48,516 nt of DNA from positions 1-48,516 of the forward strand of contig JANMSG010001169.1 of assembly GCA_031389065.1 (NCBI GenBank), read 5' to 3'. The notes beneath the pieces were generated by a model. It was not told the origin of the DNA. It saw only the letters and a list, made by a program, of their open reading frames with translations, and did not search any database. Positions 9,704-46,163 of this stretch are shown here, one piece after another (the stretch's first letter is position 1; each line of letters begins with the position of its first letter). Made by a program: the position numbers and the translations under genes. The DNA comes from Acidobacteriota bacterium. Lineage in GTDB: Bacteria > Acidobacteriota > Blastocatellia > UBA7656.

Positions 9704-10717
9704 TTATCGCCGTCTTTCAGACAAAGAGTGGGCTTGAACGACTGTAATAGCGACGGCATCACGTATATCTTCAGCCTTGCATCCTCGAGACAAGTCATTA
9801 GCAGGTTTCGCAAGTCCTTGCAAAATAGGACCTATGGCGGTGGCTCCTGCCAAGCGCTCTACGAGTTTATAAGCGATATTGCCGGCCTCAAGATTCGGAA
9901 AGATCAGGGTGTTCGCTTGCCCCGCAATCTTACTGCCGGGAGCTTTGCTTGCGGCGATTGACGCGATGAGAGCCGCATCTGCTTGCAATTCACCGTCAAC
10001 AAGTATGAAAGGAGCGCGAGCTTGAACGGTTCGCGTGGCTTCTACAACTTTATCAACAAGTGGCGAGTTTGCGCTGCCCTTGGTTGAAAACGACAGCATC
10101 GCGACACGTGCTTCAACTTCAAGCAAAGCTCTTGCTGAATCTGCCGAAGCGATGGCGATTTCAGCAAGCTCTGCTGCGGAAGGATTGATGATGACTCCGC
10201 AATCGGCAAAAATAAACGCGCCGTCGATGCCGAGTTTACTTCCCGGCACAAGCATCAAGAAGAAGCTAGAGACAACTTTGAGCCCCGCTTTCGGACCTAT
10301 GCAACGCAAAGCGGAACTGACCGTGTGTCCTGTCGTATGAGTAGCGCCCGATACGCTGCCATCGGCGCGACCTTCTTTCACCATCATATTGCCGAAGTAG
10401 AGCGGGTCTTTCATCTGCTCGCGCGCTTCATCCATCGTCACACCTTTCGCTCTACGCGCTTCGTAATAGCGTGCGGTATAAGTTTCCACTTCCGCAGAAC
10501 GCTTGGGGTCAATGACCGAAACGCCTGTAAGCGTCAGGTTCATCTGTGAAGCCTTGTCGCGTATGACTTCTTCGCGCCCGATGAGAGTGATGCGAGCCAA
10601 TCGTTCAGCTACCGAGAGCGCAGCTGCTTGAATGGCGCGTTCCTCTTCACCTTCAGGCAAAACGATGTGTTTGGGGTCGGCTGCAGCGCGCGCGCGTAGT
10701 TTTTCAAGGATATTCAT
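9704..10717 (-). CDS. pta: phosphate acetyltransferase (short PTA_PTB form)
   Basis: 337 aa. [45 protein letters not shown] and PANDLSRGC are typical Pta motifs. Confidence 0.85.
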
Positions 10718-10946: not shown

Positions 10947-11720
10947 TTAATCGCCGCTCGTCTTTACGACGGAACGTTCTTTGGAAGGGATTGTGACTTC
11001 GCCGAAAAGAATGTCTGTCAAGCCAAGCCCTTCGCGGCGGTCTATGTCGCGCTCAATCGTCTGAATCTTCACATTATGCTGCTGAATCTGCGTAGCTATC
11101 TTAACCAAATCAGCCGAGCGCATATCTTTGAGTTGCGATTGGAAATTCACCAACTGCGCTTTCATATCCTCTTTTTGCAGCTGTTCGTTTTTGGCTATCT
11201 CTGCGCTCACTTCGGTCATCAAGTCGGCGCGAATCTGTTCAAGTTGTTCTCTGCTGAGTGTCACAGACACAGCCTCTGTACCGCCTGTTGTTGCGCCTTT
11301 AATGTTCACACCCGCTGGTGCGTCTTTGCGCAATAAATCTGCGTGATATGAAACTCCGTCTTTACCAATCTTGATGTCCGTCCCAAGCACTGCAAGTATA
11401 AGCATAGCCGCTGCGACTGCGCCCAGTCCTTTTGCCCAAAGCGGCATAATCGTGAACAACTCTTTGAGCAGAGCCAGCGCCGATTTGCGAGGTTGTGCGG
11501 CGGTTTCTGCAACCAATCGCACATTCGGCACTTCGTCAAACTGCCATTGTTGCAAAGACTCGCGCACGCCCTCGAAAGCCGAAAGCTCTTGTCTGCATGA
11601 AGCGCACTCAATCAAATGCGACTCGAATCGCAGGCTCTCTTGCGGTGCTGTTTCGCCATAAAGGTAGGTGACGAGCAACTCGTGCATCTTGCAATTTGGG
11701 GTATTATTTTGTTGAGTCAT
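10947..11720 (-). CDS. anti-sigma factor (zf-HC2 type) with one TM helix and an extracytoplasmic coiled coil
   Basis: N-terminal H-x3-C-x2-C motif (HLIECASCRQEL). TM helix LGAVAAAMLILAVLG. Located downstream of the ECF sigma gene. Confidence 0.7.
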   Translation of the reverse strand: MTQQNNTPNCKMHELLVTYLYGETAPQESLRFESHLIECASCRQELSAFEGVRESLQQWQFDEVPNVRLVAETAAQPRKSALALLKELFTIMPLWAKGLGAVAAAMLILAVLGTDIKIGKDGVSYHADLLRKDAPAGVNIKGATTGGTEAVSVTLSREQLEQIRADLMTEVSAEIAKNEQLQKEDMKAQLVNFQSQLKDMRSADLVKIATQIQQHNVKIQTIERDIDRREGLGLTDILFGEVTIPSKERSVVKTSGD

Positions 11721-11829
11721 GATTTCACTTATCTTCCTTTAATTACGGCCAAAGCGGCGGCCCTTACATTTTTCATGAGCCGCGCAAATTGTATAAAGTC
11801 TCCTGAACCGCTTTCCCACAAAAGATGCT

Positions 11830-12441
11830 TCATACAGCTTCGCGTAAATGTGCGAGCCGTTTTTTCAATTCCGTCAACCCTGTATACATTCTGGTTTTCA
11901 CGGTTGACAGTGGTATGCTCAGAATTTCTGCAATTTCGTTAAACTTCAAACCCTCGTATTCCTTCATGATGATAACCTGCCGCATTTCCGCCGGCAGACC
12001 TTGCAAAGCGCGTCGAACATGAATGGTGATCTGCTCCTGCTGGATGTTGCTGCTCAGGTCGTGTTCGTCTGCGGCTAGTTCAAATCCATGTATCTCGTAC
12101 TCCTCTTCAATCGAAAGCATGAATTTGTTGCGGCCTCTGAGCTTGGTGTTACAGATATTCAGAGCAATTCTATAAATCCAGGATGAAAACTTGGCGTCGC
12201 CTCTGAATTTCGACAGATTGCGATACGCCGATAAAAAAGTCTCTTGAGTCGCGTCTTTCGCTTCTTCGTCGCGCCCCAGCATTCTGAGCGTCAAGCCATA
12301 GATATGACGCTCCCAGCGGCGCACAAGAACATTGAATGCTTCCGGCTCTCCGCCTAACGTGCGCTCAATAATTTGCGTATCATTTAAATCCAAGTTACAC
12401 TCGCGCCACCACTGAAAATTGAATCCCCATCCGTACAGCAT
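11830..12441 (-). CDS. ECF-type RNA polymerase sigma-70 family factor
   Basis: Region 2 (FNVLVRRWERHIYGLTLRMLGRDEEAKDATQETFLSAYRNL) and region 4 (EYEGLKFNEIAEILSIPLSTVKTRMYTGL). The true start may be internal to the ORF. Confidence 0.85.
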   Translation of the reverse strand: MLYGWGFNFQWWRECNLDLNDTQIIERTLGGEPEAFNVLVRRWERHIYGLTLRMLGRDEEAKDATQETFLSAYRNLSKFRGDAKFSSWIYRIALNICNTKLRGRNKFMLSIEEEYEIHGFELAADEHDLSSNIQQEQITIHVRRALQGLPAEMRQVIIMKEYEGLKFNEIAEILSIPLSTVKTRMYTGLTELKKRLAHLREAV

Positions 12442-15045: not shown

Positions 15046-16983
15046 ATGAAAAAAATTCTTGCCTTAGCGTTTTGTTTAGCCTTTATACACTCGGCATTTT
15101 CGATTTTCGCCCAAAGTGCGACCACGCCGCAGAGTAACACGACAAAGCCGATCCATTGGCTTGAGCAGGTTACCTCGCGCGCCGATTTTGACAGGCTTTC
15201 GCGCACCTATTATCGAGGTCGTTTTTACGCCCTGCCGCACATGATGTTCGTCATAGACCGGCGCGCAAAAGACCGTGTCTATTATGTGAACTCAAAAGCC
15301 TATGCGTTTCATAAAGATTTTGTGAACGCGGAATATTTATCACTTGAGCGCGGCAAAGTTTTTTACGAAAACAACTATGCAAATAAAGACAGAAGATTTT
15401 TTCTCGGCACCATTTCATATCAAACAACACTTGATAAATTCACTTTTGAATTTTGGGAAGGCGACAGATTATCGAAAGAATTGCTGACCCAGTGCTATGA
15501 CGCTTTGCGCAAAAGTTTTTTCACAGAGATTTTTTTCAAGCCCAACTCTTTAATTCAAGAAGAAGTTGCAAAAGATATGAACAACGCTTCGGTGAATCGC
15601 CTGGCTGTTATCACCGCAAGCGACCTTGCGAGCAATCAACAATATCAACCGCTCAACCTGGGCGCCAATGTAGGGCAACTTCGCATACTCGAACGCCTGA
15701 CGCCAGAGACAGTGATTGACCGCAATCAAATCGTCATCTTCAAAGAAGTGCCGATTCAACTGACGCCGCTTTCAGGCATTATCACGACCGAAGCCGCATC
15801 GCCGCTATCGCACGTCAATATTCTGGCGAAATCCTGGGGCATTCCGAATGCGCGAATCGCCAACGCCGATAAGCTTTTCAAAGAACTCGAAGGCAAGTAC
15901 GTCCGTCTGGAAATCAACGAGAATGAATACAAACTTCTGCCAGCCAATGCCAAAGAGGTCGAAGCGCGCAATCGTGAATTTATCAAACGCTCTGATTTAG
16001 TCACGCCACCTGCCGACCTGAGTTATGAAAAGCTCACAAATTTGCAAGATCAACGAAAGGCAGACGCAAAACGATTCGGCGCAAAAGCCGCGAATTTAGG
16101 CGAGATGATTAACGCCCACAATCCTAAAATAGTTGTGCCGAAAGGCTTTTCGATTCCCTTTATTCATTACAAAACTTTCTTGATCATCAACAAACTCGAA
16201 GATAAAATCGCCAACGCTGTTGAAGAAGACCGCTTCGTTCACGATCCAGTTTATCGCAAGAAGCGACTCGCAGAAATTCGCCAATGGATTCAACAAGGTA
16301 GGCTCGAAGTTGGCTTTAAAAAAATGCTTGAAGGCAAGGCTTTTGATTTAGGTTTACGCAAAGGCTTGTTTGTGCGAAGTTCCACGAATGCCGAAGACTT
16401 ACCAAATTTTAGTGGCGCGGGACTTTATACAACGGTGCCGAATGTTCGCAATTATGAGCAGCTTTACGAAGCGGTGAAAACCGTCTGGGCTTCGCTTTGG
16501 AATTATGAAGCATACGAAGCGCGCGACAGTTTCGGTATGAATCATTTCGGCGCTTATCCTTCGGTGTTGGTTCAAGAGGGAATTGATGCCGAAAGCGCCG
16601 GTGTGGCGATTACAACAGACCCATTCAATCGCGCCAACAAAGGCGCTGTTTACATCAACGCCAAACGCGGGCTTGGCATGAAAGTCGTCGAAGGTCGCAG
16701 AATTGCAGAGCAAGCTCTGTACACGCCAAGCTCAAATTCAATCAAAGTTTTAACGCGCTCGGATGAAGATACAATGTTGAAGTTCGATGAAAACGGCGGT
16801 GTGAAAGAATTGAAAATTGAACAGCATCGCGCTGTGTTGACAGATGACATGATACGACGGTTGGCTCGCGCGGCGCTGCAAATTAAACGCATCTTCGGCG
16901 GGCGCGATCAAGACATCGAATGGGTTTATGCAAAAGGCCAGCTGTACATCGTTCAATCGCGACCTTATGTTGAAAATAATTAG
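15046..16983 (+). CDS. PEP-utilising-enzyme family phosphotransferase: N-terminal signal peptide, unknown N-domain, swivel phospho-His domain, C-terminal PPDK_N ATP-grasp domain
   Basis: Signal-like MKKILALAFCLAFIHSAFSIFAQ. Swivel motif LSGIITTEAASPLSHVNILAKSWGIPNA (His256, nt 15811-15813). PPDK_N motifs FGAKAANLGEM, VRSSTNAEDLPNFSGAG and DIEWVYAKGQLYIVQSRP. Confidence 0.75.
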   Translation: MKKILALAFCLAFIHSAFSIFAQSATTPQSNTTKPIHWLEQVTSRADFDRLSRTYYRGRFYALPHMMFVIDRRAKDRVYYVNSKAYAFHKDFVNAEYLSLERGKVFYENNYANKDRRFFLGTISYQTTLDKFTFEFWEGDRLSKELLTQCYDALRKSFFTEIFFKPNSLIQEEVAKDMNNASVNRLAVITASDLASNQQYQPLNLGANVGQLRILERLTPETVIDRNQIVIFKEVPIQLTPLSGIITTEAASPLSHVNILAKSWGIPNARIANADKLFKELEGKYVRLEINENEYKLLPANAKEVEARNREFIKRSDLVTPPADLSYEKLTNLQDQRKADAKRFGAKAANLGEMINAHNPKIVVPKGFSIPFIHYKTFLIINKLEDKIANAVEEDRFVHDPVYRKKRLAEIRQWIQQGRLEVGFKKMLEGKAFDLGLRKGLFVRSSTNAEDLPNFSGAGLYTTVPNVRNYEQLYEAVKTVWASLWNYEAYEARDSFGMNHFGAYPSVLVQEGIDAESAGVAITTDPFNRANKGAVYINAKRGLGMKVVEGRRIAEQALYTPSSNSIKVLTRSDEDTMLKFDENGGVKELKIEQHRAVLTDDMIRRLARAALQIKRIFGGRDQDIEWVYAKGQLYIVQSRPYVENN

Positions 16984-17010: not shown

Positions 17011-20000
17011 ATGAAAACAGGCACAAAACGACAAGTTCATTCAAGAGTTTTTCGATTCGCTCTCGGATCATTCATTTTCGTCATTACAAGCTACGTTGCC
17101 ATTTACAGCAGCGCGCATCAAACGCCTGTGCCTCAAGTTAACACAGCTTCGGTGATAGGGTTTGTGCAAGACGACAAAGGCGCGCCTTTAGAGAAAGTCA
17201 GCGTAACGATTTCGTCGCCAAATTTCTCTGCCTCTGCGTTCACTACGGCTGATGGCAAATTCGAGTTTAAGAATCTGGCGCCAGCGAAATATTTCATCAC
17301 CGCACAAGCCGCCCGCTTCCGAAAAACGCAAACGGCCATCACCATCACCAAGCCCGATGATATCGTGCCGCCCATCACGATTAAGCTCGCGGCATCTTCG
17401 CTACACGTAGCCGTGTATGACGCAAACAATCAATCGTTAGGTGGCGTGATGGTTTCGCTCTATTCGCAAGACAGCGCAACCTCCGGCAATCCCACAGCGC
17501 GAACCGTCACAGATAAAAATGGCGACGCGTATTTCGGGAGGCTTGCGCCCAGCTCTTACACGCTCACGGCGGTCTTGCGCGGCTATGACGAATACCGGAA
17601 TCAGGTTTTTATTTCCTCTGATATCACGACAGACTTTGCGCTACAACTTCTGGTTGCGCCGGTTATTCCAATTAACACGAAAGCCATCGCGCGTTACAGC
17701 ATTCCAAATCTCCCTGCAAAAAATGTTCGCGCGATTTTTCAAGACAGCGAAGGCTGGATGTGGTTCGGCACAGATAAAGGGCTGGCGCGATTCAACGGCG
17801 CGGAGTTCAAATCATCAGCAACCACAGGCTCCGCTTATGCGCGTTTGGCAAACGAAGACGTGCGCTCGATTGCAGAAGACCAAAACGGCCGCATATGGAT
17901 TGCCACACCAGGCGGCGTGAAGCGAATCACCAAAGAAGGCGTGGAAGACGGACAATGGCTGAGTGGCGTTGAGGCACGAAACATCGCTGTTGATGCGGGC
18001 GGCAACGTGTGGGTTGCGACGGCATCGGGCGTTTTCAAATTCGACGGCAAAGATTTAGAAGCGTTTGATGAATCTCGCGGTCTGCCATCAAACGATGTAA
18101 GAGCAATCGCCATTGATAAAAGCGGCAAGGTTTGGATTGCTACAGCAAAAGGCGTGGCCATCCTCGCAGATAATAAAATCCATTTGCTTGAGCCGAAACG
18201 CGACGTTTCCACAGACAATGCCGAACCCTTATCTGTTCAACCAAAACCTGCATCACAGACTGCTACGCAAAAAAAATCAACAGCTTCGCAAACGGTGACA
18301 AATACGGCTCAACAACCTTCGCAGGCTTCTACAGCGAACCCAATGGCGCTTGCAAAAGTAAATGATTTGGACGATGTTCAAAACCTATTTATAGACAAGG
18401 CTGGCGGCGTTTGGCTGGCAACCAACAAAGGCGCGATTTTTATTGAGGCAAACCATACGAACACTTTTGATTTATCGCAGGCGCAAGTAGCCAATGGCTT
18501 GTCCATTCGCGCCATCAGTCAAGACATCGCAGGGCGTATGTGGTTTGCGCTCACAGAGGGCGGCGCGCTGATTTACGATCCCTCAACTCGCGACTCGCAA
18601 CGCATCAGCCTGTTAGAGCAGGATCACATTGCGGCAATCTCAAACGAGCGCGAAGGGTATTTATGGTTCGCTACAGACAATGGCGCAGTCTATGCAGACT
18701 TCTATAGCTTTATCCTTTTCACGACCAGTCGCGGTCTCTCCGACAATGACGTGCATGCGGTTATTGAAGACTCCAGCGCAACAACCGCACAGGCTCATGG
18801 CAACCTCTGGTGCGTCACCTCAACAGGCGCATCGCGTATGCAGGATGAGCGATTCGTTCCTATCGAACGATTCCGCACCAACATCCATATACGCGGCGTT
18901 GCTTTCGACAACACGGGCGCGGCTTGGGTGGCAACAGACCAAGGCGCAATTAAATTCAGCGGAAAAACTTTAGCGCAATTCAGCGAAGGCAACGGCTTGG
19001 CTTCAAACAACATTCGTTATGTGGCGAGCCTTGCAAAAGGCGCGGCGATGGTCTTCGCTACCTCGAAAGGCGCAAGCATCTTTGAGAACGGAGTGTTTCG
19101 CAAGCTCGATGGTTTGGACGGCTACGACGCGCGACAGATATTTGAAGACACGGACGGGCGTTTGTGGTTTGCTACCTCTCGCGGTGTGATGGTTTACAAT
19201 CGGAAAACGGATGTGGCAAAGCTTATTGATACCTCGCGTGGACTCATTGATAATGACACTCGTTGGATCACTCGATACAACGGTGAATTGTTGATAGCCA
19301 CACGCGCCGGTGTGCAAATTTATAATGAGCGACAACAAAGCGCCTCGTCGTTTGACAGCGAACCGGCGAACACAATTTTTGTTGATAGAGACAATTTTTT
19401 GTGGGTAGGGACGGATAACGGGCAGCTCAAAAAAATCGCTGCCGTTCAAAGTCACATTGTTTCGAGCATCTATTCGGGCGAGATTCATTCGCTGACTGCC
19501 AATCGAATCAATTCCATCTCCGAAGACAACGATGGTCATATTTGGATCGCTACGGATAAAGGCGTAGTTCGCCATACACCGATCCGCACAACTCCTTCGA
19601 TTCAAGTGTCGCTCAAAGTCGAAGGTCGTTCGGAAGCGGATTCAGGCTCAGGCAGGGTTGAACTTCCCAACGGACGACAACGCGTTACCTTTCGTCTGAC
19701 AGGCGTAAGCATGAGCAAGCCCGTGCAATATCTTTATCGTATCAACCCGGAAGGCGGAAACGAACGTTGGGAATTGCTGCCTGTTCAAACGGGGCTTGAG
19801 CGGGAGATCCCGTTTTTTGAATTCACTGAAGGCGTGAACACTTTTGAAGTCATGGCGCTCAATCGTGATTTGTATGGAGGGCTGGCGCCGAGCGCTGCGA
19901 TTACCATTTATGTAAACCCGCCGTTTTATAAGAAGTGGTGGTTTTATTTATTCGGGCTTCTCGTCGCAGGATCGGCTACCACAGCCTTTTTCGTGGTTCG

Positions 20001-21201
20001 CAAGAAAAATCAGCGCGAGTATGTTCTGCCGAAAGAGTTGCGCGAGTTCGTGCCTATCGAACCCAATCCCTACATTGTCGGCAATCCCATACGCACGGAA
20101 AAAATGTTCTACGGACGAGAAGACGATTTTCGTTACGTGCAAACCAAGCTCGAAGGCGCGTCGCAAGGCGTGGTCATCGTCTTTTGCGGCGAGCGCAGAG
20201 TCGGCAAGAGTTCGATTCTCTTTCAAGTGATGAACGGTAGATTGGGCGAGCGCTTCGTTCCGGTCTTCGTCGATATGCAAGAGATGGTCATCACTTCGGA
20301 CGCCGAGTTCTTCGCGCGCATCTCACGTTTGATCGTCGAATCGTTAGCGCGGAAAAACATCAAAGTCACTGCGCCTCAATTTCACGAAGGAAATCCTTAT
20401 CATATCTTCTTAGATTTTCTCGATGAAGTGTTGGCGGCGATAGAAGACCGAACGCTTTTGATATTGATGGACGAGTACGAGTTGATGGAATCGAAGGTAG
20501 ATGAAGGAAAGATTTCGCAAGAATTTTTTACCTTCTTAGCCGGCTTGATGGACAACAGAGAGCGTCTGGCGATTATCTTCACAGGTTCGCGGCGCCTCGA
20601 GGAGCGCGATAAAAAATATTGGCGCGACCTGTTGCGCCGCTCGCTGTTTCGCAAGGTCGGTTTCTTATCCGGCAAAGACACCCTGCGCCTCATCACAGAC
20701 CCTGTCGAAGGTCGCGTAGTTTACGGGCGCGGCGCGATTGAAGCGATTTGCAGATTGACGGCGGGACAGCCCTTTTATACGCAGGTCACCTGTCAAAACA
20801 TTGTTGATTATATGAACGAACACGAGCAGAACTATATTACGCTCGCAGACCTGCAGCATGTCACTGCAGACATCACAGACAACCCTCTGCCGCAGATGAT
20901 TTACACCTGGGACGCGCTTTCGGATGATGAGAAATTGGTGATGTCTTTGCTCGCTGATGCTCTGCCTGACGGTAACGATTTCGCCACCGCATACGATTTG
21001 CGAGTGGTTGTGAAAGCGAACGAATATCCTGTGAATTTATCTGAAACAACCATTCGCATGACGCTTGAAGAGATGTTCCGCCGCGAGTTGCTGGATAAAA
21101 ATGCCAGCGAGGGTTTCCGAATCAAAATAGATTTGTTCCGATTATGGATTCGCCGCTCACATTCCATCTGGCAAGTAGTCAAAGAAGTGCGAACGCTTTA
21201 A
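17011..21201 (+). CDS. transmembrane sensor: 2x CarboxypepD_reg + about 14 Reg_prop propeller blades + Y_Y_Y domain + TM helix + cytoplasmic Arch/ORC-type AAA NTPase with wHTH
   Basis: N-terminal anchor FALGSFIFVITSYVAIY. Repeated blade motif (e.g. VRAIFQDSEGWMWFGTDKGLARF, VRSIAEDQNGRIWIATPGGV). Y_Y_Y region around VQYLYRINPEGGNERWE. TM helix WWFYLFGLLVAGSATTAFFVV (aa 976-996). NPYIVGNPI...FYGREDDF (aa 1019 onward). Walker A GERRVGKSS (nt 20188-20214). Walker B LLILMDEYE. Confidence 0.8.
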   Translation: MKTGTKRQVHSRVFRFALGSFIFVITSYVAIYSSAHQTPVPQVNTASVIGFVQDDKGAPLEKVSVTISSPNFSASAFTTADGKFEFKNLAPAKYFITAQAARFRKTQTAITITKPDDIVPPITIKLAASSLHVAVYDANNQSLGGVMVSLYSQDSATSGNPTARTVTDKNGDAYFGRLAPSSYTLTAVLRGYDEYRNQVFISSDITTDFALQLLVAPVIPINTKAIARYSIPNLPAKNVRAIFQDSEGWMWFGTDKGLARFNGAEFKSSATTGSAYARLANEDVRSIAEDQNGRIWIATPGGVKRITKEGVEDGQWLSGVEARNIAVDAGGNVWVATASGVFKFDGKDLEAFDESRGLPSNDVRAIAIDKSGKVWIATAKGVAILADNKIHLLEPKRDVSTDNAEPLSVQPKPASQTATQKKSTASQTVTNTAQQPSQASTANPMALAKVNDLDDVQNLFIDKAGGVWLATNKGAIFIEANHTNTFDLSQAQVANGLSIRAISQDIAGRMWFALTEGGALIYDPSTRDSQRISLLEQDHIAAISNEREGYLWFATDNGAVYADFYSFILFTTSRGLSDNDVHAVIEDSSATTAQAHGNLWCVTSTGASRMQDERFVPIERFRTNIHIRGVAFDNTGAAWVATDQGAIKFSGKTLAQFSEGNGLASNNIRYVASLAKGAAMVFATSKGASIFENGVFRKLDGLDGYDARQIFEDTDGRLWFATSRGVMVYNRKTDVAKLIDTSRGLIDNDTRWITRYNGELLIATRAGVQIYNERQQSASSFDSEPANTIFVDRDNFLWVGTDNGQLKKIAAVQSHIVSSIYSGEIHSLTANRINSISEDNDGHIWIATDKGVVRHTPIRTTPSIQVSLKVEGRSEADSGSGRVELPNGRQRVTFRLTGVSMSKPVQYLYRINPEGGNERWELLPVQTGLEREIPFFEFTEGVNTFEVMALNRDLYGGLAPSAAITIYVNPPFYKKWWFYLFGLLVAGSATTAFFVVRKKNQREYVLPKELREFVPIEPNPYIVGNPIRTEKMFYGREDDFRYVQTKLEGASQGVVIVFCGERRVGKSSILFQVMNGRLGERFVPVFVDMQEMVITSDAEFFARISRLIVESLARKNIKVTAPQFHEGNPYHIFLDFLDEVLAAIEDRTLLILMDEYELMESKVDEGKISQEFFTFLAGLMDNRERLAIIFTGSRRLEERDKKYWRDLLRRSLFRKVGFLSGKDTLRLITDPVEGRVVYGRGAIEAICRLTAGQPFYTQVTCQNIVDYMNEHEQNYITLADLQHVTADITDNPLPQMIYTWDALSDDEKLVMSLLADALPDGNDFATAYDLRVVVKANEYPVNLSETTIRMTLEEMFRRELLDKNASEGFRIKIDLFRLWIRRSHSIWQVVKEVRTL

Positions 21202-21257
21202 AGTATATAAACTCAGGTAGAAATGACATCAAAGAAATTGAGATAGTAAAAAAATAG

Positions 21258-23198
21258 ATGCATCGTAATCCTTATCTAAACCGTGTTGCTATTAAAGACC
21301 CGGCGCAGTTCTTCGGACGCGCGCGCGAAGTCTCAAAAATATTTTCCCGCATCGGCGCGTCGCGTCCGCAATCTATTTCCGTTGTTGGCGAACGGCGCAT
21401 AGGAAAATCGTCGCTTCTTTACTACCTCAACCATCCGCAAATTCGCGCCAAGTATCTCGATAAATCCGAAGATTACATATTCGTCTTCATAGACCTTCAG
21501 CAAAAACGCAAACTCAGGCTCACAGAGTTTTTTCAGGAGTTGTTTGCCTTAATTGCCAAAGAGATAAACGATGAGAAAATTACCTTGCTTGAACCAAGTT
21601 TCGATTCCTTGCGCGGCTTGCTCGAAAATTTTAGAAGCGAAGGGCGCAAACTCATCGTCCTGTTCGATGAATTCGATGTCATCACAACCAACCGCGCCTT
21701 CGATCTGGAGTTCTACTCATTCCTGCGCTCGATTGCAAATAACTACGACGTGGCGTATGTGACAAGTTCTGCGCGTGACTTGCAAGAGCTCTGCTACACG
21801 CAACTTATAGCCGATTCCCCTTTCTTTAATATCTTTACAAATGTTTTTTTGCGGGCTTTTTCGCGCAAAGAAGCTCTCGATTTAATTGTGGTTCCGTCAG
21901 TTCAAGAGGGCTTGCCGCTGGAAAATTATACGCGGCGAATTATGGAACTTGCCGGTCACTTTCCTTACTTTTTGCAAATCGCTTGCTCGGCTTACTTCGA
22001 TCATCTTTTGGAAAACGACGGCAAACTCAATCGTGAAGAGGTCGAAGACAATTTTCTCGATGAAGCCAAAGGACAATTCAGGTTCATCTGGGACAAAATG
22101 AGCGAAGGGCAACGCCGCGCCATTCGCAGCTTCGTTGAAAGTAACAAAGCTGAAAAAGAGCAAGCACATATTTTTGAAGATCTAAAACGCGCCGGTTATT
22201 TTCTCGAAGACGAGCGCGGGACTCGTTTGTTCTCTACCAAATTCTCTTCCGTGATTTCGCGCCCGCGAATGATTACTACGGAATTGCGTGACACAGACCG
22301 CGCCGCCATGGCTGTACATGACGGTAAGACGGAAAAAGTCGCTGCGCCGCCTTTGATTGAACCTCACGGACACATTGGCAGATTCGATATTCATCGTTCA
22401 TTAGGCGCGGGCGGAATGGGTGAAATTTTTGAAGCGTACGACACGGAACTTCAACGCACGGTCGCCATCAAAGTCCTGGTCTCAAAGTTTGTAGAAAATG
22501 AAACCATGAAGCAGCGGTTTTTGCGGGAAGCGCGCATGGCTTCGCAACTCAATCATCCGAATATCGCTACGATTTACGAGATCGGCGAGGCCGCTGGTAA
22601 TCCTTATATTGTTATGGAATGTGTTGAAGGCGAAACGCTCAATGACAAAATAAACAACGGCCCGATTGAGTTGAAAGATATCTTGGAAATCGGCGAGCAG
22701 ATCGCTGACGCGCTCGCCGAAGCGCACGAACACGGCGTCGTTCATCGCGACATCAAATCCGCGAACATCATGATTACGACTCGCGGAAAAGTGAAGGTGT
22801 TGGATTTCGGTTTGGCCAAACCTCTGCCTCTTTCGAGCGAGCGCAAGAATAAAACGAAGCTAACGGAATCCGGCGTGTTGCTTGGCACTGTGAGTTACAT
22901 GTCACCCGAACAAGCGACAGGGCAAGGAGATGTCTCGCATCTTTCGGATATTTTTTCGCTCGGTGTAGTGCTTTATGAAATGCTAACGGGGAGCTTGCCG
23001 TTTGAAGGCGACACTTATTTCCAAACCATTCAGGCGATAAACAAACGCACTCCGGTTTCGATAAAAAAACTTCGTAAAGACGCGCCCGCATCTTTGATTG
23101 CGATTATCGAACGTATGCTGAAAAAATCTCCGTCAGAGCGTTACCAGGCGGCATCAGAAATCGCGCGCGATTTGCGCAAAGTGGCTAGTGAAAGCTGA
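21258..23198 (+). CDS. Arch/ORC-type AAA NTPase-wHTH fused to a Hanks-type Ser/Thr protein kinase
   Basis: NPYLNRVAI...FFGRAREV. Walker A GERRIGKSS (from nt 21387). Walker B LIVLFDEFD. Kinase motifs: GAGGMGEIF, AIKVL, HRDIKSANIM (from nt 22743), DFGLAK, SPEQ. 56 nt downstream of the previous gene. Confidence 0.85.
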   Translation: MHRNPYLNRVAIKDPAQFFGRAREVSKIFSRIGASRPQSISVVGERRIGKSSLLYYLNHPQIRAKYLDKSEDYIFVFIDLQQKRKLRLTEFFQELFALIAKEINDEKITLLEPSFDSLRGLLENFRSEGRKLIVLFDEFDVITTNRAFDLEFYSFLRSIANNYDVAYVTSSARDLQELCYTQLIADSPFFNIFTNVFLRAFSRKEALDLIVVPSVQEGLPLENYTRRIMELAGHFPYFLQIACSAYFDHLLENDGKLNREEVEDNFLDEAKGQFRFIWDKMSEGQRRAIRSFVESNKAEKEQAHIFEDLKRAGYFLEDERGTRLFSTKFSSVISRPRMITTELRDTDRAAMAVHDGKTEKVAAPPLIEPHGHIGRFDIHRSLGAGGMGEIFEAYDTELQRTVAIKVLVSKFVENETMKQRFLREARMASQLNHPNIATIYEIGEAAGNPYIVMECVEGETLNDKINNGPIELKDILEIGEQIADALAEAHEHGVVHRDIKSANIMITTRGKVKVLDFGLAKPLPLSSERKNKTKLTESGVLLGTVSYMSPEQATGQGDVSHLSDIFSLGVVLYEMLTGSLPFEGDTYFQTIQAINKRTPVSIKKLRKDAPASLIAIIERMLKKSPSERYQAASEIARDLRKVASES

Positions 23199-23244: not shown

Positions 23245-23931
23245 TTATCCCTTTGGTTCTATTAAATAATCCTCGCGCTTTGTTGAACTGATTGAAATGT
23301 CATCTGCGTGGCGAGACTCACGTGTAAACATCAAAAAACCGACTCCCATAATCACCAATACGAGCAAAATGACGATGACCAAAAAGTACCAGGGAAATTG
23401 TTGCTCATTCGTAGTCGCTGTGCCGGAGCCTTCAAAAGAAAACATGACAAAAGGACCGATTACCGCGCCCATCAATCCGACTAACAGGGCGATGCGGTCG
23501 AACTGCCCTTCTTGCGGAGCCTGCACGCGCCAACCTATATAAGTGCCAGCCATCGAAGCCACCATCGCAAAAATGACGTAAAGAAAACTTTGTCCAGTGA
23601 TGGAGATGCGCCCTGCCGAATCATTGAGCCAGTTCATCGCCAGATAATTGCTGCTTCCCGCCGACACAAGCAGTAAGAGAAGCGAGTTGAGAAGGATTGT
23701 CGCCATCGCCACGATTGCCGAATCGAGGAGGCGAATCTTTTCGCTCATTAATCCGATAATAAAACCGCCGACAAGAAAGGCACCGAGCGTCAGCCCGAAA
23801 ACCAAAACGAGGAGGATGCCTTGTGGGGATTGAGTCTTTCCGAGAAGCAGATTTGCAATAAGCGAAATCGTGGCTTGAATCCCGAAGGTGAAAACAAGCC
23901 CTAAAAGCATCCATTTCATTCGATGCTTCAT
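23245..23931 (-). CDS. hypothetical polytopic membrane protein
   Basis: 228-aa ORF with about 6 hydrophobic helices. No family recognised. Convergent with the kinase gene. Confidence 0.55.
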   Translation of the reverse strand: MKHRMKWMLLGLVFTFGIQATISLIANLLLGKTQSPQGILLVLVFGLTLGAFLVGGFIIGLMSEKIRLLDSAIVAMATILLNSLLLLLVSAGSSNYLAMNWLNDSAGRISITGQSFLYVIFAMVASMAGTYIGWRVQAPQEGQFDRIALLVGLMGAVIGPFVMFSFEGSGTATTNEQQFPWYFLVIVILLVLVIMGVGFLMFTRESRHADDISISSTKREDYLIEPKG

Positions 23932-39800: not shown

Positions 39801-40034
39801 AAAACCGGGCGTTGGATGTTACTGGTAACCAGATTGTTGTATGAGTCAAGCCGAAAGTATAGGGGCGCGAGACAGGGATTTCAAGACCTTCTCGGGTGCT
39901 TGCCTTACAGCCATGAAAGCCTTATTCTAGGCGCTAATCTAATATTTTTTTTGAGTTGCTTTGCGCTCTCACACTCAATAACACCTGGCGCGACTTGCTT
40001 AACGGCTCAGGCTCAAAAAAACCGCGGAGGCTTG

Positions 40035-41594
40035 ATGAACAAATCAAAACAACTCTTTATCGTTCTCTTCTGGATAAGTGCCCTTGTCTTTCTGTCTTTG
40101 TCAGGGTCAAGCACGCAGACCAAGAGAACTCTGTCGCAGAAGACCGTGGAGCCTTCGCGTCGAATCGTTGCGCCGAAAATTTGGGATGCCAAGGCGTTAG
40201 CCAACTGGGCTACGCCGATTAACGGTGTAAATGCAACGCCAAATTATCTCAGCGAAGACGAATACTATGCAGCGCCTGTTGATAATCTGCGAACCTATGC
40301 GGTCTATCATCCCGACTACGAGCCGAAAGGTTATCAAGAGTGGGTAAAGAAGCAAGGCGCGCAGCCCTTAATTGAACCTGAAAAACTCAAGACCGAAAGA
40401 GATTGGATAGAAGCGGGTCGCCGCGTTTTTGAAGAGTTTGATGTGCCGGTTGTGCGAACCAGTGATCCTCGCGTTTTTGCCTACCTGCAAGACCGCTTGG
40501 CGATGAAACGAGACGGTAACGTCACCAAAGAGGGCGTGATTGCTGGTGTTCGATGGGTCGTGGAAAAAAACGGGGAGGTCAAGTTGGCATTATCCGAGTG
40601 TGCGGCTTGTCATACACGCTTGATGGATGACGGCTCAGTCATTCGCGGCGCACAGGGCAATCTCAACTTGGGCTCTCAAATCATCGGCTACCTGGTTGAA
40701 GGCTTCGCAAAGAACAATGAAAAATTGGGCGTATCGTTGGCACAAAGCGAATATGGCGCTTATGGCGTGCCTTGGATTAAAGACGATATTCACGAGCGCT
40801 TCAAAAAAATGAGCGAAGAAGAGATCGGCACTGTCGATGGCCCGCCGCTTCCCGGCACGTTTCCCAGATTCAATGGCAGCCCTTACTACATCACGAAAAT
40901 TCCAGACCTCATAGGCGTCAAAGACCGTCGCTATCTTGACCATACGGGAACCCATCTGAACCGCGGTTCCAAAGACATCGCCCGTTACGGCGCATTGGTG
41001 GGGTATGCGGAAGACGGTGCCATCGGTCATTATAAATTCCTTACAGAGGAACAGCGTCGTTTGTCATTTCGTCTGAGCGATGAAGCTCTCTATGCGCTTG
41101 GCAAATATATCTATGCGCTAGAGCCGCCGCCAAATCCCAACAAACCCAACTCGCTCACAGCGCGAGGCAAAAAGGTCTTTGAGCAGGAAGGTTGCACCAT
41201 GTGTCACGCGCCGCCACACTACACCAACAATATGCTTATGCCAGTTGACGGATTCACACCCCCCAAAGATGATCCGGCAACTGAGCGACTCCACATTCTG
41301 CGAGGCGTTCGCCTCGGAACCGATCCAAATCTGGCTTTGAAGACGCGAAAAGGAACAGGCTATTACAAAGTTCCTTCGCTCAAAGGGCTTTGGTATCGCA
41401 GCTTACTTGAGCATTCGGGGTCCATCGCTTCTCTTGAAGATTGGTTGGGTAAAAAGCGCTTGCGAGATGATTACGAGCCAAGCGGCTGGAAAGGTCCTGG
41501 CATAAAAACACGCGCCGTGAAGGGACACGAATTCGGGCTTGAGCTTTCAATAGCAGATAAAAATGCACTCATCGCGTTTCTAAAAACTCTTTAG
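40035..41594 (+). CDS. putative di-heme c-type cytochrome (CCP/MauG-like), exported
   Basis: Two CxxCH motifs (CAACH, CTMCH). Start set at ATG 40035 (MNKSKQLFIVLFWISALVFLSL, GGAGG upstream). The ORF is open from 39816. Confidence 0.65.
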   Translation: MNKSKQLFIVLFWISALVFLSLSGSSTQTKRTLSQKTVEPSRRIVAPKIWDAKALANWATPINGVNATPNYLSEDEYYAAPVDNLRTYAVYHPDYEPKGYQEWVKKQGAQPLIEPEKLKTERDWIEAGRRVFEEFDVPVVRTSDPRVFAYLQDRLAMKRDGNVTKEGVIAGVRWVVEKNGEVKLALSECAACHTRLMDDGSVIRGAQGNLNLGSQIIGYLVEGFAKNNEKLGVSLAQSEYGAYGVPWIKDDIHERFKKMSEEEIGTVDGPPLPGTFPRFNGSPYYITKIPDLIGVKDRRYLDHTGTHLNRGSKDIARYGALVGYAEDGAIGHYKFLTEEQRRLSFRLSDEALYALGKYIYALEPPPNPNKPNSLTARGKKVFEQEGCTMCHAPPHYTNNMLMPVDGFTPPKDDPATERLHILRGVRLGTDPNLALKTRKGTGYYKVPSLKGLWYRSLLEHSGSIASLEDWLGKKRLRDDYEPSGWKGPGIKTRAVKGHEFGLELSIADKNALIAFLKTL

Positions 41595-42769: not shown

Positions 42770-43121
42770 AATTTGTTCCTCCTTATTTAGTGCGATAGAA
42801 ATCCGACAAGACGGATTCAAAAAATGATTCCTGGCGACGCTTTTCAAGCGCGGCTCAGTTTATCAATCTTTCATTGTCGCGACAATCTGAGTTGCCATCG
42901 CATAAAAGAAATCTCCTTGCGAAAAGCTCAACCATTCCGATTTTTCTGAGCCAGCCAATTGCTTCACAAAAAAATGTGAGAATTCCTGCACTGTTTCTCC
43001 TGCTTTTTCCGTCAGTAGTTAATAGAGGGCTCCGATTCCCTTTTTCGTACTACTCGAAATTAACTGCTCGTCAATGTTGCAGACCGAGCAAGTTGGGAAT
43101 TTACTTTTCCGGAGCCTCATT

Positions 43122-46100
43122 ATGCTGAAAAGAACATCTTCACTTTGGGTTTGTTTCTTGAGTTTTGCGCCTGTTTTCTGTCTGCTCGCAACTGCGACGG
43201 GCGATGCCAACGAAACCTTGTTTACCTTACAATCAACCCCACAGGTCGCGACCCTCGCCATCAATGAATATTTAGCCGACCCGCCCGATACCATCGCAGG
43301 TGACGCAAACGGCGACGGTACGCGGAGCGCTTCGCAAGATGAATTCGTGGAGTTGGTAAACTATGGCTTGCTTCCACTCAACATCGGTGGCTTTACCATC
43401 AGCGATGAAGATGCAAGTAGATTTACGTTTCCATCCGGCACAATTGTCCCCGCAGGCGATGCGGCTGTGGTCTTTGGTGGTGGCACGCCCACAGGCTCTT
43501 TCGGCAATGGGACGGTGAATGGATTGGTGTTTCGTGTTGGGGGTGGGGGGTTATCTCTCGCCAACAGCGCAGACTCTATCATCATAAAAGACAATTTAGG
43601 AACGGAAATCGCTCGGCGAGATTATCCTTCCGCAGACGGCTCGGCGAATCAATCCATCACGCGAAGCCCGGATATTTCGGGCGGCTTCGTTCGCCATTCG
43701 CTGGCGACAGGCAGCAATGGCACGCTCTTTTCGCCGGGTACACGAATCAATGGCACGGCTTTTAGCGACGGGCCGCGTCTGATGCAAATCAGTCCCGATC
43801 AAGTTCTGCAAAGCAATTCGCCGTTTGACCTCGAGGTGATCGGAATCAATTTTGACCCCGGTGCCCTTGTATTAATAGATTTCAACCCTGTGCCTACAAA
43901 TTTCATCGGCAACACAAATTTGACGGCAACGATTTCCGCAAGCATTGCGTCAACAGCCGGCAATCATCGCGTTGAAGTAATCAATTCCGATGGCAACCAT
44001 TCAAACGCTTTGACTCTGACGATTATCGCGCCTCCTCCTGTTTTACAGGGGCTGCGCCCTATGTTTGTTGAGCTTGGCAGCGGACCCTTCACTTTAGTTT
44101 TGCAAGGCGAACATTTCACGCCTTTATCAAAAGTGTTGATCGAAGGCACGACCGTCACAACATTCTTCAACAATGCGCGCGAACTCATAGCGACTGTACC
44201 TTTGTCAGTTACCAACACGCTCGGCAGTCGTCGCGTTCGCGTTCGCAACGGAGACGGACAGCTATCAAACGAGTCGGCTTTTGAAGTCGTACCGAAAAGC
44301 CCGCGCCTCAATTCGCTCAATCCTTCGCAAGCAATCGCCGGAAGCCCTGCATTCATCTTGACACTCGCCGGTGCAAATTTCAGTACCAGTTCAAACGTGT
44401 TGTTCAACCAAACGCCGCTTGCGACGAAGTTCATTTCGTCCGCGTCCTTAATTGCCGAGGTGCCTGCGTCGCTCATCACCGACATTGGATTGAAGCCTGT
44501 GACAGTGCAAAGCAATGAGGGCGGGATTTCAAACGAAATCGCCTTTCGCGTCTTTGCCATTGCTCCGTTACTCAGTACGGTTGCGCCAGATTCGACAATC
44601 GAAGGAAGCGGCGAACAGATGCTGGTACTTGTCGGGGAGAGATTCAAAAAAGGTGCTATTGTTCGCGCCCTTAGAAATTCGCAACTCACCCCTCCACTCG
44701 ATGCCACATTCATTTCCAGTGAACGAATCGAAGCGAAACTTCCCGCCTCGCTCCTTCAAACACCGGACAATCTTTTGATACGGGTCGAAAATCCCGACTT
44801 CGGATTTTCAAACGAATTCGTCTTCAAAGTCTTCATCAAAGACCCGCTGGTTATTAACGAATACCTGGCAGACCCGCCAGATGGCAATGCAGGGGACGCC
44901 AACGGCGATGGCACACGCAGCACTTCTCAAGATGAGTTTGTTGAAATCGTCAATCGCACAAGCCAGGCAATAGATATTTCGGGCTATAAACTCTTTGACG
45001 CGGACGCCATGCGGCACGTCTTCGCGCCTTTGACCATCGTCCCGCCGTTTGAAGCCGTCGTCGTTTTCGGCGGCGGCAGACCACAAGGCAAATTCGGCAA
45101 CGCTTTCGAGAATCGCTTAGTCTTCACTGCCTCATCGGGCGGACTTTCCTTCAACAACGGTGGCGACACGATCAAGCTCGAAGACGCAACCGGGCGTACA
45201 ATCCAAGAGATTAAATTCGGCACCTCCGAAGGAAATGCCAGCGAATCTATCAACCGCGATCCAGATGGCGATGGCGCGCTCTTCACAACCCATCAAAGAG
45301 TGACCGGAACAGATAAAAAGTTTTCGCCGGGCGCAAAAGCTACAGGCGAACCATTCACCATCAAGCCCGCCATCAACGCTCTTTCACCGGCGAGCATACA
45401 CGCCCGTTCCGCAACTTTTTCGCTTATTATTTCAGGGACAAATTTCCAACCCGGCGCGGTCGTCAGTTTCGGGCAGACCATGCTTGCGACGGTTTATCAG
45501 TCAGAGACAGAGCTTGAAGCGAGAGTGGGCGCAGAGCTTTTGATGGAAGGCGGAGTATTTGAAATTCGCGTGAAAAACCCCAGAGGCGAAACCTCAGGCA
45601 ACGTGAAGTTTTTAATCTTTGACGACCCGCCAGGCATCGCTTCCATCAATCCTAAGAAGACCGGGACAGGGGCAGAAAATCTTGAGATCACTATTCAAGG
45701 CGAAAGATTTCAGCGCGGCGCTGTGGTGACGATTGCGAACGAAAAGGTAGCAACAAAATTTATTCAAGCCGCTGACTCAACGAGTTCGCTACTTGCCATC
45801 GCTCCTGAAAAATTCTTCACAGCCGCCGCCAATTTAGAACTCCGCGTCATCAACGAAGATGCAAACGTATCGAACGCGATGACGCTCACGGTTGAAAACG
45901 GGCCGCTGGTTACGCGCATCTCGCGGACAAAATTCAAAGCGGGAAGAGGCGCAGTTGAAATAAACTTTTCAGGCGTTGCGTTTAACTCCAGCATTGTTTT
46001 GTTTGTGGATGACAAATCCGTGCCGACTACTTTTGTAAACGAGACCTCTTTTACTGCGCGCATTCCTGCGGAGATGACAAACGTTGCGGGGCAATTGACG

Positions 46101-46163
46101 ATTCAAGCGCGTCACACGGATGGCGGCAGATCGAATAAAATAAAAATCAAAGTGGTTGAGTAA
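43122..46163 (+). CDS. large secreted protein with two lamin-tail (LTD) domains, each followed by IPT/TIG-like Ig repeats
   Basis: Signal peptide MLKRTSSLWVCFLSFAPVFCLLATA. Two LTD signatures: INEYLADPPDTIAGDANGDGTRSASQDEFVELVN and INEYLADPPDGNAGDANGDGTRSTSQDEFVEIVN. Repeated units of about 85-90 aa of the type P..G...L.I.G..F..GA.V... Confidence 0.8.
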   Translation: MLKRTSSLWVCFLSFAPVFCLLATATGDANETLFTLQSTPQVATLAINEYLADPPDTIAGDANGDGTRSASQDEFVELVNYGLLPLNIGGFTISDEDASRFTFPSGTIVPAGDAAVVFGGGTPTGSFGNGTVNGLVFRVGGGGLSLANSADSIIIKDNLGTEIARRDYPSADGSANQSITRSPDISGGFVRHSLATGSNGTLFSPGTRINGTAFSDGPRLMQISPDQVLQSNSPFDLEVIGINFDPGALVLIDFNPVPTNFIGNTNLTATISASIASTAGNHRVEVINSDGNHSNALTLTIIAPPPVLQGLRPMFVELGSGPFTLVLQGEHFTPLSKVLIEGTTVTTFFNNARELIATVPLSVTNTLGSRRVRVRNGDGQLSNESAFEVVPKSPRLNSLNPSQAIAGSPAFILTLAGANFSTSSNVLFNQTPLATKFISSASLIAEVPASLITDIGLKPVTVQSNEGGISNEIAFRVFAIAPLLSTVAPDSTIEGSGEQMLVLVGERFKKGAIVRALRNSQLTPPLDATFISSERIEAKLPASLLQTPDNLLIRVENPDFGFSNEFVFKVFIKDPLVINEYLADPPDGNAGDANGDGTRSTSQDEFVEIVNRTSQAIDISGYKLFDADAMRHVFAPLTIVPPFEAVVVFGGGRPQGKFGNAFENRLVFTASSGGLSFNNGGDTIKLEDATGRTIQEIKFGTSEGNASESINRDPDGDGALFTTHQRVTGTDKKFSPGAKATGEPFTIKPAINALSPASIHARSATFSLIISGTNFQPGAVVSFGQTMLATVYQSETELEARVGAELLMEGGVFEIRVKNPRGETSGNVKFLIFDDPPGIASINPKKTGTGAENLEITIQGERFQRGAVVTIANEKVATKFIQAADSTSSLLAIAPEKFFTAAANLELRVINEDANVSNAMTLTVENGPLVTRISRTKFKAGRGAVEINFSGVAFNSSIVLFVDDKSVPTTFVNETSFTARIPAEMTNVAGQLTIQARHTDGGRSNKIKIKVVE

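Follow-up and report, generated by a model that had tools for sequence, protein, structure and literature searches.

A 48,516-nucleotide stretch of DNA from the Blastocatellia (Acidobacteriota) contig JANMSG010001169.1, referred to here as the window, carries two adjoining forward-strand genes that appear to belong together (Table 1). One encodes a 1396-residue membrane sensor ending in a cytoplasmic P-loop ATPase, and the other a 646-residue soluble protein that joins a related NTPase to a winged helix-turn-helix domain and a Hanks-type Ser/Thr kinase. We consider it moderately probable that the two genes form a split, STAND-like transmembrane signaling module, in which the kinase would be recruited to a receptor ATPase, and activated there, by assembly of the two NTPases.

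The kinase protein begins three residues ahead of an NPY motif (residues 4-6), as do all its orthologues, and its NTPase matches Pfam PF20702, Novel STAND NTPase 2 (nSTAND2), over residues 34-288 (E 1.2e-67; 228.5 bits, where the gathering threshold is 24 bits; model positions 1-269 of 279). Also found in the translation and alignments were FFGR, TSSAR after strand beta4 and a GxxP motif. The kinase domain is complete from the Gly-rich loop through the subdomain XI Arg, as expected of Hanks-type Ser/Thr kinases, with GxGxxG (GAGGMG), VAIK, HRDIKSAN, DFG and SPE all present. In an alignment of 17 homologues, the lowest at 34% identity, G383, G385, G388, K405, E424, H496, D498, N503, DFG 516-518, PE 550-551, D564 and R628 were invariant, as were the key residues of the NTPase, and T536 of the activation loop, which is flexible at residues 518-541 in the full-length AlphaFold model, was nearly so. 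A hydropathy scan of the protein returned no transmembrane segment above threshold, and Pfam identified no repeat or sensor domain (TPR, WD40 or LRR) in its 646 residues, the sensing domains being located on the partner protein. These results agree with the original prediction, an earlier reading of the DNA letters, which had described an N-terminal NTPase, a winged-helix-like segment and a complete kinase toward the C-terminus of a protein lacking a membrane segment or sensor of its own. More than 120 homologous clusters at 73-90% identity share this length and architecture, and those named by organism are metagenome-assembled genomes of Blastocatellia or Acidobacteriota.

The sensor is organized as an N-terminal signal anchor, two CarboxypepD_reg domains, a Reg_prop beta-propeller, a Y_Y_Y-like domain, a transmembrane helix and the cytoplasmic ATPase. 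Two hydrophobic segments lie on either side of an ectodomain of about 950 residues, with the ATPase at the C-terminus (hydropathy, Pfam). Pfam matched Reg_prop (E 1e-44), CarboxypepD_reg (E 1.5e-20) and, weakly, AAA_22, AAA_14 and ATPase_2; the Y_Y_Y-like (Ig) domain is a putative assignment from reading the sequence, Pfam Y_Y_Y being matched only in the relative L098. Against PF20702 the sensor ATPase scored 16.2 bits (E 0.0068), under the 24-bit cut-off, and no Pfam or NCBIfam model matched the sensor-type clade above threshold, generic AAA models matching weakly; it is a separate sister clade of nSTAND2 for which Pfam has no model. The C-terminal tail of the sensor is still recognizable at 34-48% identity (RRTHSIWQVVKEA, RREHTIWHLADEF, RREHDVWQVADHL); distant loci in which it can be made out include L023, L026 and L110. 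Where the ATPase precedes the membrane helix, the tail motif is found about 20-40 residues ahead of that helix, and it may be a docking or regulatory element.

The two NTPases are homologous. BLASTP aligned the C-terminal 386 residues of the sensor with residues 4-286 of the kinase protein (25% identity across 305 residues, E 6e-20), and a profile-profile comparison of the two clades with hhalign gave a probability of 99.6% (E 9e-24, 278 columns), so the paralogy with the sensor output domain that had been proposed, along with pairwise alignment as its check, is well founded. In a joint alignment the N-terminal NPY, F..GR, GxRRxGKSS and hhhhDE were invariant in both clades, as were a GxP-like motif and the Arg that follows strand 4. 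A set of 60 non-redundant pairs had Walker A GK[ST] intact in 59 sensor-type and all 60 kinase-type modules, and Walker B D[ED] in every one, indicating that both NTPases are probably active enzymes. Distant sensor ATPases matched the sensor ATPase of the window (E 1e-72 to 3e-119) far better than its kinase NTPase (E 5e-13 to 2e-5), which, with the correlated distances described below, suggests that the duplication is old and that the two lineages have been co-inherited.

AlphaFold predicted the full-length kinase protein as two folded bodies with a disordered linker between them (mean predicted local distance difference test score, pLDDT, 81.5). A model of the NTPase region by itself, built on 18 stand-alone relatives, reached a pLDDT of 94.3 and a predicted template modeling (pTM) score of 0.90. 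It contains a five-stranded P-loop core, a helical lid and a winged helix (helices 283-295, 300-312 and 327-334, hairpin 315-318/321-324; pLDDT about 90-94), which is the winged-helix-like segment of the earlier reading. The best Foldseek matches in the PDB were archaeal Walker ATPases of the ATPase_2 type, 2qen (E 9e-13, TM-score 0.62) and 2fna, followed in order by many ORC/Cdc6 subunits and then by a plant CNL resistosome, a nucleotide-binding leucine-rich-repeat (NLR) protein, and TnsC. Alignments to ORC/Cdc6 and the archaeal ATPases covered 365-400 columns, approximately the whole model including the winged helix. A PDB profile search also recovered 2fna (E 1.6e-8); direct sequence searches of either NTPase against PDB chains found nothing significant. 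Together, the model, the Foldseek matches and the profile match identify the kinase-protein NTPase as an AAA+/STAND-type switch with a C-terminal winged helix, its nearest solved relatives being of the ATPase_2 type.

As defined by Leipe et al. in 2004, STAND proteins are said to combine Walker A GxxxxGK[ST], Walker B hhhhD[DE], an Arg after strand 4 (hhhToR-type sensor 1), GxP in the helical module, a winged helix and sensor repeats. The kinase-protein model has the winged helix after the helical lid, and the alignments show conserved GxxP in the kinase type and GQP in the sensor type. Strand beta4 (residues 165-171) is followed by TSSAR, the kinase-protein motif, or TGSRR; R173 was invariant in a 16-sequence alignment and is replaced in some distant members.

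Linkage of the two genes was examined in orthologous loci with enough upstream DNA to be informative. A sensor orthologue was found directly upstream on the same strand in 17 of these 19 loci, the exceptions being L001 and L014, so the kinase is not normally encoded alone and far from a sensor gene. In most related loci the spacer measures about 8-120 nt or the genes overlap; promoter and terminator scans over 14.8-23.5 kb did no better than shuffled controls and were uninformative on operon structure beyond the terminator-free spacer. The most distant orthologue, L019 (49-55% identity), retains sensor and kinase and has lost the genes for a PPDK_N protein, a 228-residue membrane protein and FeoB that flank the pair in Blastocatellia loci, indicating that the pair, not the neighborhood, is the conserved unit.

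A search of 1.84 billion representative sequences with the NTPase region returned 5645 clusters, 497 of them at E <1e-30. Of four distant NTPase-kinase genes (43-49% identity), three were directly preceded by a gene for a sensor-type ATPase, with an overlap or a gap of 6 nt. In L023 the overlapping gene encodes a periplasmic domain flanked by transmembrane segments and a sensor-type ATPase (phmmer E 3e-119 to that of the window), in L026 it encodes dCache_1, HAMP and a sensor-type ATPase (E 1e-72), and in L024 a partial sensor-type ATPase gene (E 3e-48) stops 6 nt ahead of the kinase gene; the fourth gene, L025, was without a partner. From the sensor side, an alignment of sensor-type ATPases led to 80 metagenomic loci at 43-94% identity, 61 of them informative, and an adjoining same-strand gene for an nSTAND2-type NTPase was present in 47 and absent in 14. 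Comparative genomics, with these three counts, thus supports the earlier suggestion that the upstream sensor is a dedicated partner of the kinase.

Inputs and outputs vary among distant relatives. At 43-50% identity the pair is still present, but the sensor may be exchanged for dCache_1-HAMP, TPR or PEGA and the output for a kinase at either end, TIR or a cyclase. By hydropathy, the sensor-type ATPase proteins are membrane-anchored in one of two topologies, ectodomain-helix-ATPase or ATPase-helix-ectodomain, and their ectodomains are Reg_prop/Y_Y_Y, dCache_1 with HAMP, TPR, PEGA or unassigned. The original prediction had specified a propeller sensor as the partner; the membrane-anchored sensor-type ATPase proved to be the constant part, and the propeller one of several ectodomains. 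Adjoining partners included nSTAND2-kinase and kinase-nSTAND2 proteins, an nSTAND2-TIR protein whose gene overlaps that of a dCache_1-ATPase (L110), and an operon in which nSTAND2 and a kinase each stand alone, together with a cyclase-nSTAND2 (L109). A sigma54-activator fusion of nSTAND2 is encoded convergently with a sensor-type ATPase gene (L108), and the contig bearing a PP2C fusion (L107) was too short to reveal context; outputs in the loci examined are therefore Hanks kinase, TIR and nucleotide cyclase, with informative context for the sigma54 fusion and not for PP2C. After clustering at 50% identity, the nearest relatives of the kinase-protein NTPase stood alone or were fused to a kinase (N- or C-terminal), PP2C/SpoIIE, TIR, adenylate/guanylate cyclase, a sigma54 activator, or a transmembrane segment with TPR. 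A dedicated partnership predicts that the NTPase pair is kept while the ectodomain is swapped, and this is what the loci show. Clustering of open reading frames (ORFs) across distant loci found only the two NTPases as recurrent gene families, plus a 434-447-residue barrel-like protein in seven loci. A word-indexed search with a dCache-type sensor ATPase gave 71 matches, which were uninformative on taxonomic spread.

The barrel-like protein has a weak match to Phenol_MetA_deg, an outer-membrane barrel-like family, and its gene lies between the sensor-type ATPase and nSTAND2 genes in the subgroup with ATPase-helix-ectodomain topology (L075 4305-5642; L076 4573-5883; L085 8325-9626; L088 2480-3781; L109 3534-4874). 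Its presence suggests a three-component, envelope-spanning variant.

In the mechanism we propose, the upstream sensor would be the receptor, and its extracytoplasmic CarboxypepD_reg/Reg_prop/Y_Y_Y-like region would bind an external ligand, probably a glycan or polymer fragment by analogy with Bacteroides hybrid two-component sensors that have the same ectodomain. A single transmembrane helix would connect this region to the cytoplasmic P-loop ATPase, with its winged-helix-type C-terminal region, and the transducer would be the soluble paralogous NTPase and winged helix, which some 35 flexible linker residues join to an active Hanks kinase. Ligand binding would alter the receptor ATPase in its oligomeric or nucleotide state, and this ATPase would then co-assemble with the kinase-protein NTPase through an AAA+/STAND-type interface comparable to those of ORC/Cdc6 and NLR-type STAND proteins. 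ORC/Cdc6 and NLR proteins act through oligomeric assembly, and it is by analogy with them that we propose both the hetero-assembly and the direction of signal flow. Kinase domains concentrated in this way at the membrane could trans-autophosphorylate their activation loops, with T536 as the candidate site there, and then phosphorylate cytoplasmic substrates; ATP hydrolysis by both NTPases would reset the complex.

The locus is set in an ordinary stretch of chromosome. Genes were found in the window for GroEL, Pta, an extracytoplasmic function (ECF) sigma/anti-sigma pair, FeoB, a polyA/CCA-type nucleotidyltransferase, cytochrome c, a class II tRNA synthetase, HtrA and GlpX, and synteny across Blastocatellia loci extends to the 228-residue membrane protein, feoB, the nucleotidyltransferase, cytochrome c and the tRNA synthetase. 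Among orthologues the kinase protein (73-85% identity) evolves about as slowly as FeoB (66-74%); the sensor ATPase is 68-77% identical and the sensor ectodomain 45-53%, a pattern usual for a conserved transducer behind a faster-adapting ligand-binding domain.

It is unlikely, in our view, that the pair is instead a conflict or anti-invader system of the abortive-infection type, with the NTPases as a STAND-type trigger and the kinase as an effector that is toxic or regulatory, like those of phage defenses based on kinases. The kinase-protein NTPase belongs to a Pfam family labeled Novel STAND NTPase 2, and we take the Pfam nSTAND families to stem from studies of conflict systems. TIR outputs occur among the relatives, and in some of them (L002, L004, L028, L029) restriction-modification or toxin-antitoxin modules are inserted between the sensor and kinase genes. 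Paired-STAND two-gene operons have been described as counter-invader systems (Kaur et al., 2021; PMC8195603), and the kinase domain matches the PADLOC models PD-T4-6, mad6 and MkoA. The PADLOC-DB 2.0 matches are, however, limited to the generic kinase domain (residues ~370-645), with no match to the NTPase and a single marginal match to the sensor (E 0.009); PADLOC and NCBIfam gave generic kinase-domain matches only, and assignment to a named defense or NCBIfam system was rejected. The sensing domains are extracytoplasmic and of an environmental kind (Reg_prop/Y_Y_Y, dCache_1, HAMP), whereas known STAND defense proteins sense inside the cell. The Blastocatellia locus is in chromosomal synteny with feoB, the CCA-adding-type nucleotidyltransferase and the tRNA synthetase, the window holds one sensor-kinase pair and no other Hanks kinase, and the proteins evolve as slowly as their housekeeping neighbors. 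Both NTPases are intact, unlike those of the published pair, and the two sequences scanned from the published nSTAND2 alignment were not recognized by PF20702. We gave more weight to the environmental-type extracytoplasmic sensors, the housekeeping synteny and the slow evolution, and this context favors environmental signaling over phage defense.

Quite unlikely, we think, is that the genes are simply neighbors by descent from an old duplication, each product forming its own homo-oligomer, with the kinase answering an intracellular cue through its own NTPase and winged helix and the sensor ATPase having a kinase-independent output. The orphan kinases (L001, L014, L025) and 14 orphan sensors look intact, nSTAND2 relatives that stand alone or carry a fused output are numerous, with genomic context seen for a minority, and 2qen and 2fna, the archaeal ATPases related to the module, each consist of a single protein. 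Synteny alone, however, does not predict adjacency that survives domain swaps, and here it is kept to 43-50% identity through exchanges of sensor and output and a change in kinase position, with stop and start codons often overlapping. The PPDK_N, 228-residue protein and FeoB genes that make up the Blastocatellia synteny are gone from the distant loci, which retain the pair, and an input domain and an output domain are not found together in either protein.

Very unlikely is a reverse or enzymatic coupling, in which the kinase would phosphorylate the cytoplasmic region of the sensor (for example its SHS-containing tail) to tune sensitivity, or the sensor ATPase would be a chaperone or loader for the kinase: the invariant tail RRSHSIWQVVKEVRTL holds Ser residues, ORF clustering across distant loci found no other conserved substrate gene nearby, and the AAA+ loaders Cdc6/ORC and TnsC are among the structural neighbors, but the tail Ser is not strictly conserved in distant members (RREHTIW, RREHDVW), where the partner output can be TIR or cyclase, which are unable to phosphorylate, and the idea is otherwise compatible with the same genomic evidence, which offers nothing specific against it.

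Several observations weigh against the split receptor-kinase module that we favor. We infer the physical interaction of sensor and kinase from genomics alone. About a quarter of the loci are unlinked, namely the kinases of L001, L014 and L025 and the 14 sensors without a partner within 1.5-6 kb, so adjacency is not obligatory, and in several relatives a restriction-modification or toxin-antitoxin pair separates the sensor gene from that of the kinase, which means that the two need not be co-transcribed. Co-evolution of the NTPases, raised in the original prediction, receives a qualified answer: the distance matrices of the two modules do correlate (Mantel r 0.96 for all loci and 0.83 among 17 distant loci; 0 of 999 permutations), but shared species phylogeny inflates such a mirror-tree correlation, which is at most consistent with co-inheritance. 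Because the Arg after beta4 varies among distant members, the catalytic and assembly details are uncertain. ORF clustering across distant loci found no conserved substrate, phosphatase or FHA partner nearby, and the name of the Pfam family and the TIR outputs of relatives point to conflict systems more than to plain environmental signaling.

The unlinked and interrupted loci have features of their own. In L001 the kinase lacks a sensor and has an RHS-repeat protein and hypothetical genes upstream (before position 10001), with downstream synteny unchanged; L014 likewise has a kinase without a sensor. In L033, L037, L038, L039 and L049 the sensor is followed by convergent genes, and no kinase was found within 6 kb. 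This suggests that rearrangement split the pair in some Blastocatellia lineages, both genes staying intact. The spacer between sensor and kinase genes holds an EcoRV-like endonuclease and D12 methyltransferase in L004 (6663-8551) and L028 (7179-8926), a methyltransferase alone in L029 (7231-8175), a DUF433 and DUF5615 pair in L002 (9388-9986), and pairs of ~95-residue ORFs in L031 (1876-2449) and L046 (2196-2754). Small selfish modules have invaded this spacer repeatedly.

Among published systems, a mobile two-gene nSTAND2 operon with paired STAND modules, predicted to form a toroidal hetero-multimer, is similar in layout (Kaur, Iyer, Burroughs and Aravind, eLife 2021; PMC8195603, Fig. 6C). 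[quoted passage not shown] Both there and here, two adjoining same-strand genes each encode a STAND-type NTPase with a winged helix-turn-helix, and one partner bears the effector. Here, however, both Walker sets are intact and the effector, a Hanks kinase, belongs to an intact module that matches PF20702. One module is anchored in the membrane and bears an extracytoplasmic sensor, and inheritance of the locus is vertical, within a housekeeping neighborhood, rather than mobile and sporadic. Initially we assumed that the Pfam and published nSTAND2 families were the same; two sequences from the published alignment, compared by Pfam scan, had no Pfam match, PF20702 included, at E up to 1. With the link of names thus unverified, we have not filed the locus under that system. 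One row of the source table of that study (membrane beta-barrel, then STAND with winged helix-turn-helix, then kinase with cyclase) resembles the subtype seen here in L076 and L109 (PMC8195603). The kinase protein resembles other PF20702 proteins in its 228-bit score and in having relatives that stand alone or carry fused outputs; for the systematic pairing of this module with a membrane-bound paralogous ATPase, from a clade below the Pfam and NCBIfam thresholds, open-access papers and bioRxiv preprints yielded no description.

Classical STAND/NLR hubs (MalT, Apaf-1, plant and animal NLRs, bacterial Avs/NACHT) unite sensor, switch and effector in one cytosolic polypeptide with TPR, WD40 or LRR repeats. 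The pair described here shares with them a P-loop NTPase, helical lid and winged helix as a nucleotide-dependent oligomerization switch that would gather effectors, the plant CNL resistosome being among the fold matches, but its sensor and effector are on two paralogous switch proteins and its sensor is extracytoplasmic. In structure, archaeal ATPase_2 proteins and ORC/Cdc6 resemble the kinase-protein NTPase more closely than NACHT or NB-ARC do. The GlnH-GlnX-PknG relay of Corynebacterium and Mycobacterium has a soluble Ser/Thr kinase, free of transmembrane segments, in an operon with membrane and periplasmic parts that deliver the signal. This is the nearest known case in functional logic, a soluble kinase with a separately encoded membrane sensor, although PknG has a TPR scaffold and a four-helix membrane protein and no paired NTPases, and homology of the coupling parts is not expected. 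Bacteroides hybrid two-component sensors (e.g. BT4663) have periplasmic Reg_prop/Y_Y_Y domains followed by a histidine kinase, receiver and AraC. The sensor in the window is like them in its Reg_prop ectodomain (Y_Y_Y was matched in the relative L098) and single transmembrane helix, and unlike them in that its cytoplasmic output is a P-loop ATPase and Ser/Thr phosphorylation is left to a separate protein.

The usual view of bacterial Hanks kinases is that they sense either with extracellular domains of their own (PASTA and similar) or by way of poorly understood cytoplasmic cues, and to our knowledge a route by which outside signals reach soluble kinases is established in few cases, such as PknG. 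The locus suggests a modular answer, with receptors whose sole cytoplasmic domain is a P-loop ATPase and a matching NTPase fused to the output enzyme. It is possible, and we advance the idea tentatively, that this is a general and as yet undescribed class of bacterial transmembrane signaling, in which a receptor STAND/ORC-like ATPase nucleates a hetero-oligomer with a soluble paralogous NTPase bearing an interchangeable output (kinase, TIR or cyclase). Such a class would be a prokaryotic counterpart of receptor-nucleated signalosomes (Myddosome, NOD-RIPK2), beside two-component systems, chemoreceptors and ECF sigma/anti-sigma pairs. Should the coupling prove real, it would add an architecture to the census of prokaryotic signal transduction, give a role to a sizeable set of ATP-binding or hypothetical membrane proteins below Pfam and NCBIfam thresholds, and provide a bacterial model of STAND-type assembly driven by an extracellular ligand; it also bears on the question of whether nSTAND families are purely conflict systems or ordinary environmental sensors too. 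A search of open-access papers and bioRxiv preprints found no description of membrane sensor-ATPases paired with nSTAND2-effectors, which is weak evidence of absence because the search covered only those sources. The pair is kin to known STAND-based signaling and paired STAND operons and points to a route, so far little described, for signals to cross the membrane; its importance would rise substantially if hetero-assembly and generality across outputs were demonstrated.

Table 1. Features of the sensor and kinase genes, with positions in the window and residue numbers in the encoded proteins.
Feature	Positions	Strand	Residues, basis and remarks
Membrane sensor gene, 1396 residues	17011..21201	+	ORF list, translation, Pfam
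Signal anchor or signal peptide of sensor	17047..17103	+	13-31; hydropathy scan, mean Kyte-Doolittle 1.91
Extracytoplasmic sensing region	17104..19941	+	32-977; CarboxypepD_reg x2, Reg_prop propellers (Pfam), putative Y_Y_Y-like Ig domain (sequence reading)
Sensor transmembrane helix	19942..19998	+	978-996; hydropathy scan
Cytoplasmic sensor-type ATPase module	20041..21198	+	1011-1396; BLASTP, hhalign, motif alignment; includes NPY motif
Walker A of sensor ATPase, GERRVGKSS	20188-20214	+	Motif alignment
Walker B of sensor ATPase, LMDEYE	20464-20481	+	Motif alignment
Sensor C-terminal tail, RRSHSIWQVVKEVRTL	21151..21198	+	Last 16 residues; identical in aligned Blastocatellia orthologues
Sensor-kinase intergenic spacer	21202..21257	+	56 nt; no terminator-like site (sequence, terminator scan)
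NTPase-winged helix-turn-helix-Ser/Thr kinase gene	21258..23198	+	646-residue soluble product, ATG start; ORF list, translation, Pfam
nSTAND2-type P-loop NTPase core and helical lid	21267..22097	+	4-280; Pfam PF20702, model, Foldseek
Walker A of kinase-protein NTPase, GERRIGKSS	21387-21413	+	Translation
Walker B of kinase-protein NTPase, IVLFDEFD (core LFDEFD)	21654-21677	+	Translation
Winged helix-turn-helix domain	22104..22259	+	283-334; AlphaFold secondary structure, three helices and beta-hairpin wing
Disordered linker	22263..22364	+	336-369; pLDDT <50, full-length model
Hanks-type Ser/Thr protein kinase domain	22386..23153	+	377-632; Pfam Pkinase, E 2.8e-54

Upstream of the sensor gene, positions 15046-16983 (+) encode a 645-residue protein with an N-terminal signal peptide and, as its sole domain, a PPDK_N ATP-grasp domain (residues 343-642, E 4e-55). 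It is without the phosphohistidine and phosphoenolpyruvate-binding domains of phosphoenolpyruvate synthase, and an apparently exported ATP-grasp protein is odd. Most Blastocatellia loci have this gene ahead of the sensor gene, in many cases separated from it by variable genes (GGDEF, PQQ-like), and the distant loci lack it. On the other side, convergent with the kinase gene, positions 23245-23931 (-) encode the 228-residue protein, which has several strongly hydrophobic stretches, by eye those of a polytopic membrane protein, and no Pfam or PADLOC match. This gene lies between the kinase gene and feoB in every Blastocatellia locus that extends there (36-70% identity), and its product may belong with the Feo transporter rather than the kinase.

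About 5 kb upstream of the sensor gene, at 10947-12441 (-), are an ECF-type sigma factor (Sigma70_r2/r4) and then a zf-HC2 anti-sigma factor, a conventional transmembrane signaling pair. Also found in the window was a 1029-residue protein with IPT/TIG and two Lamin Tail Domains (43074-46163, +), and the adjoining 592-residue ORF (39816-41594) had no Pfam match at E up to 1e-5.

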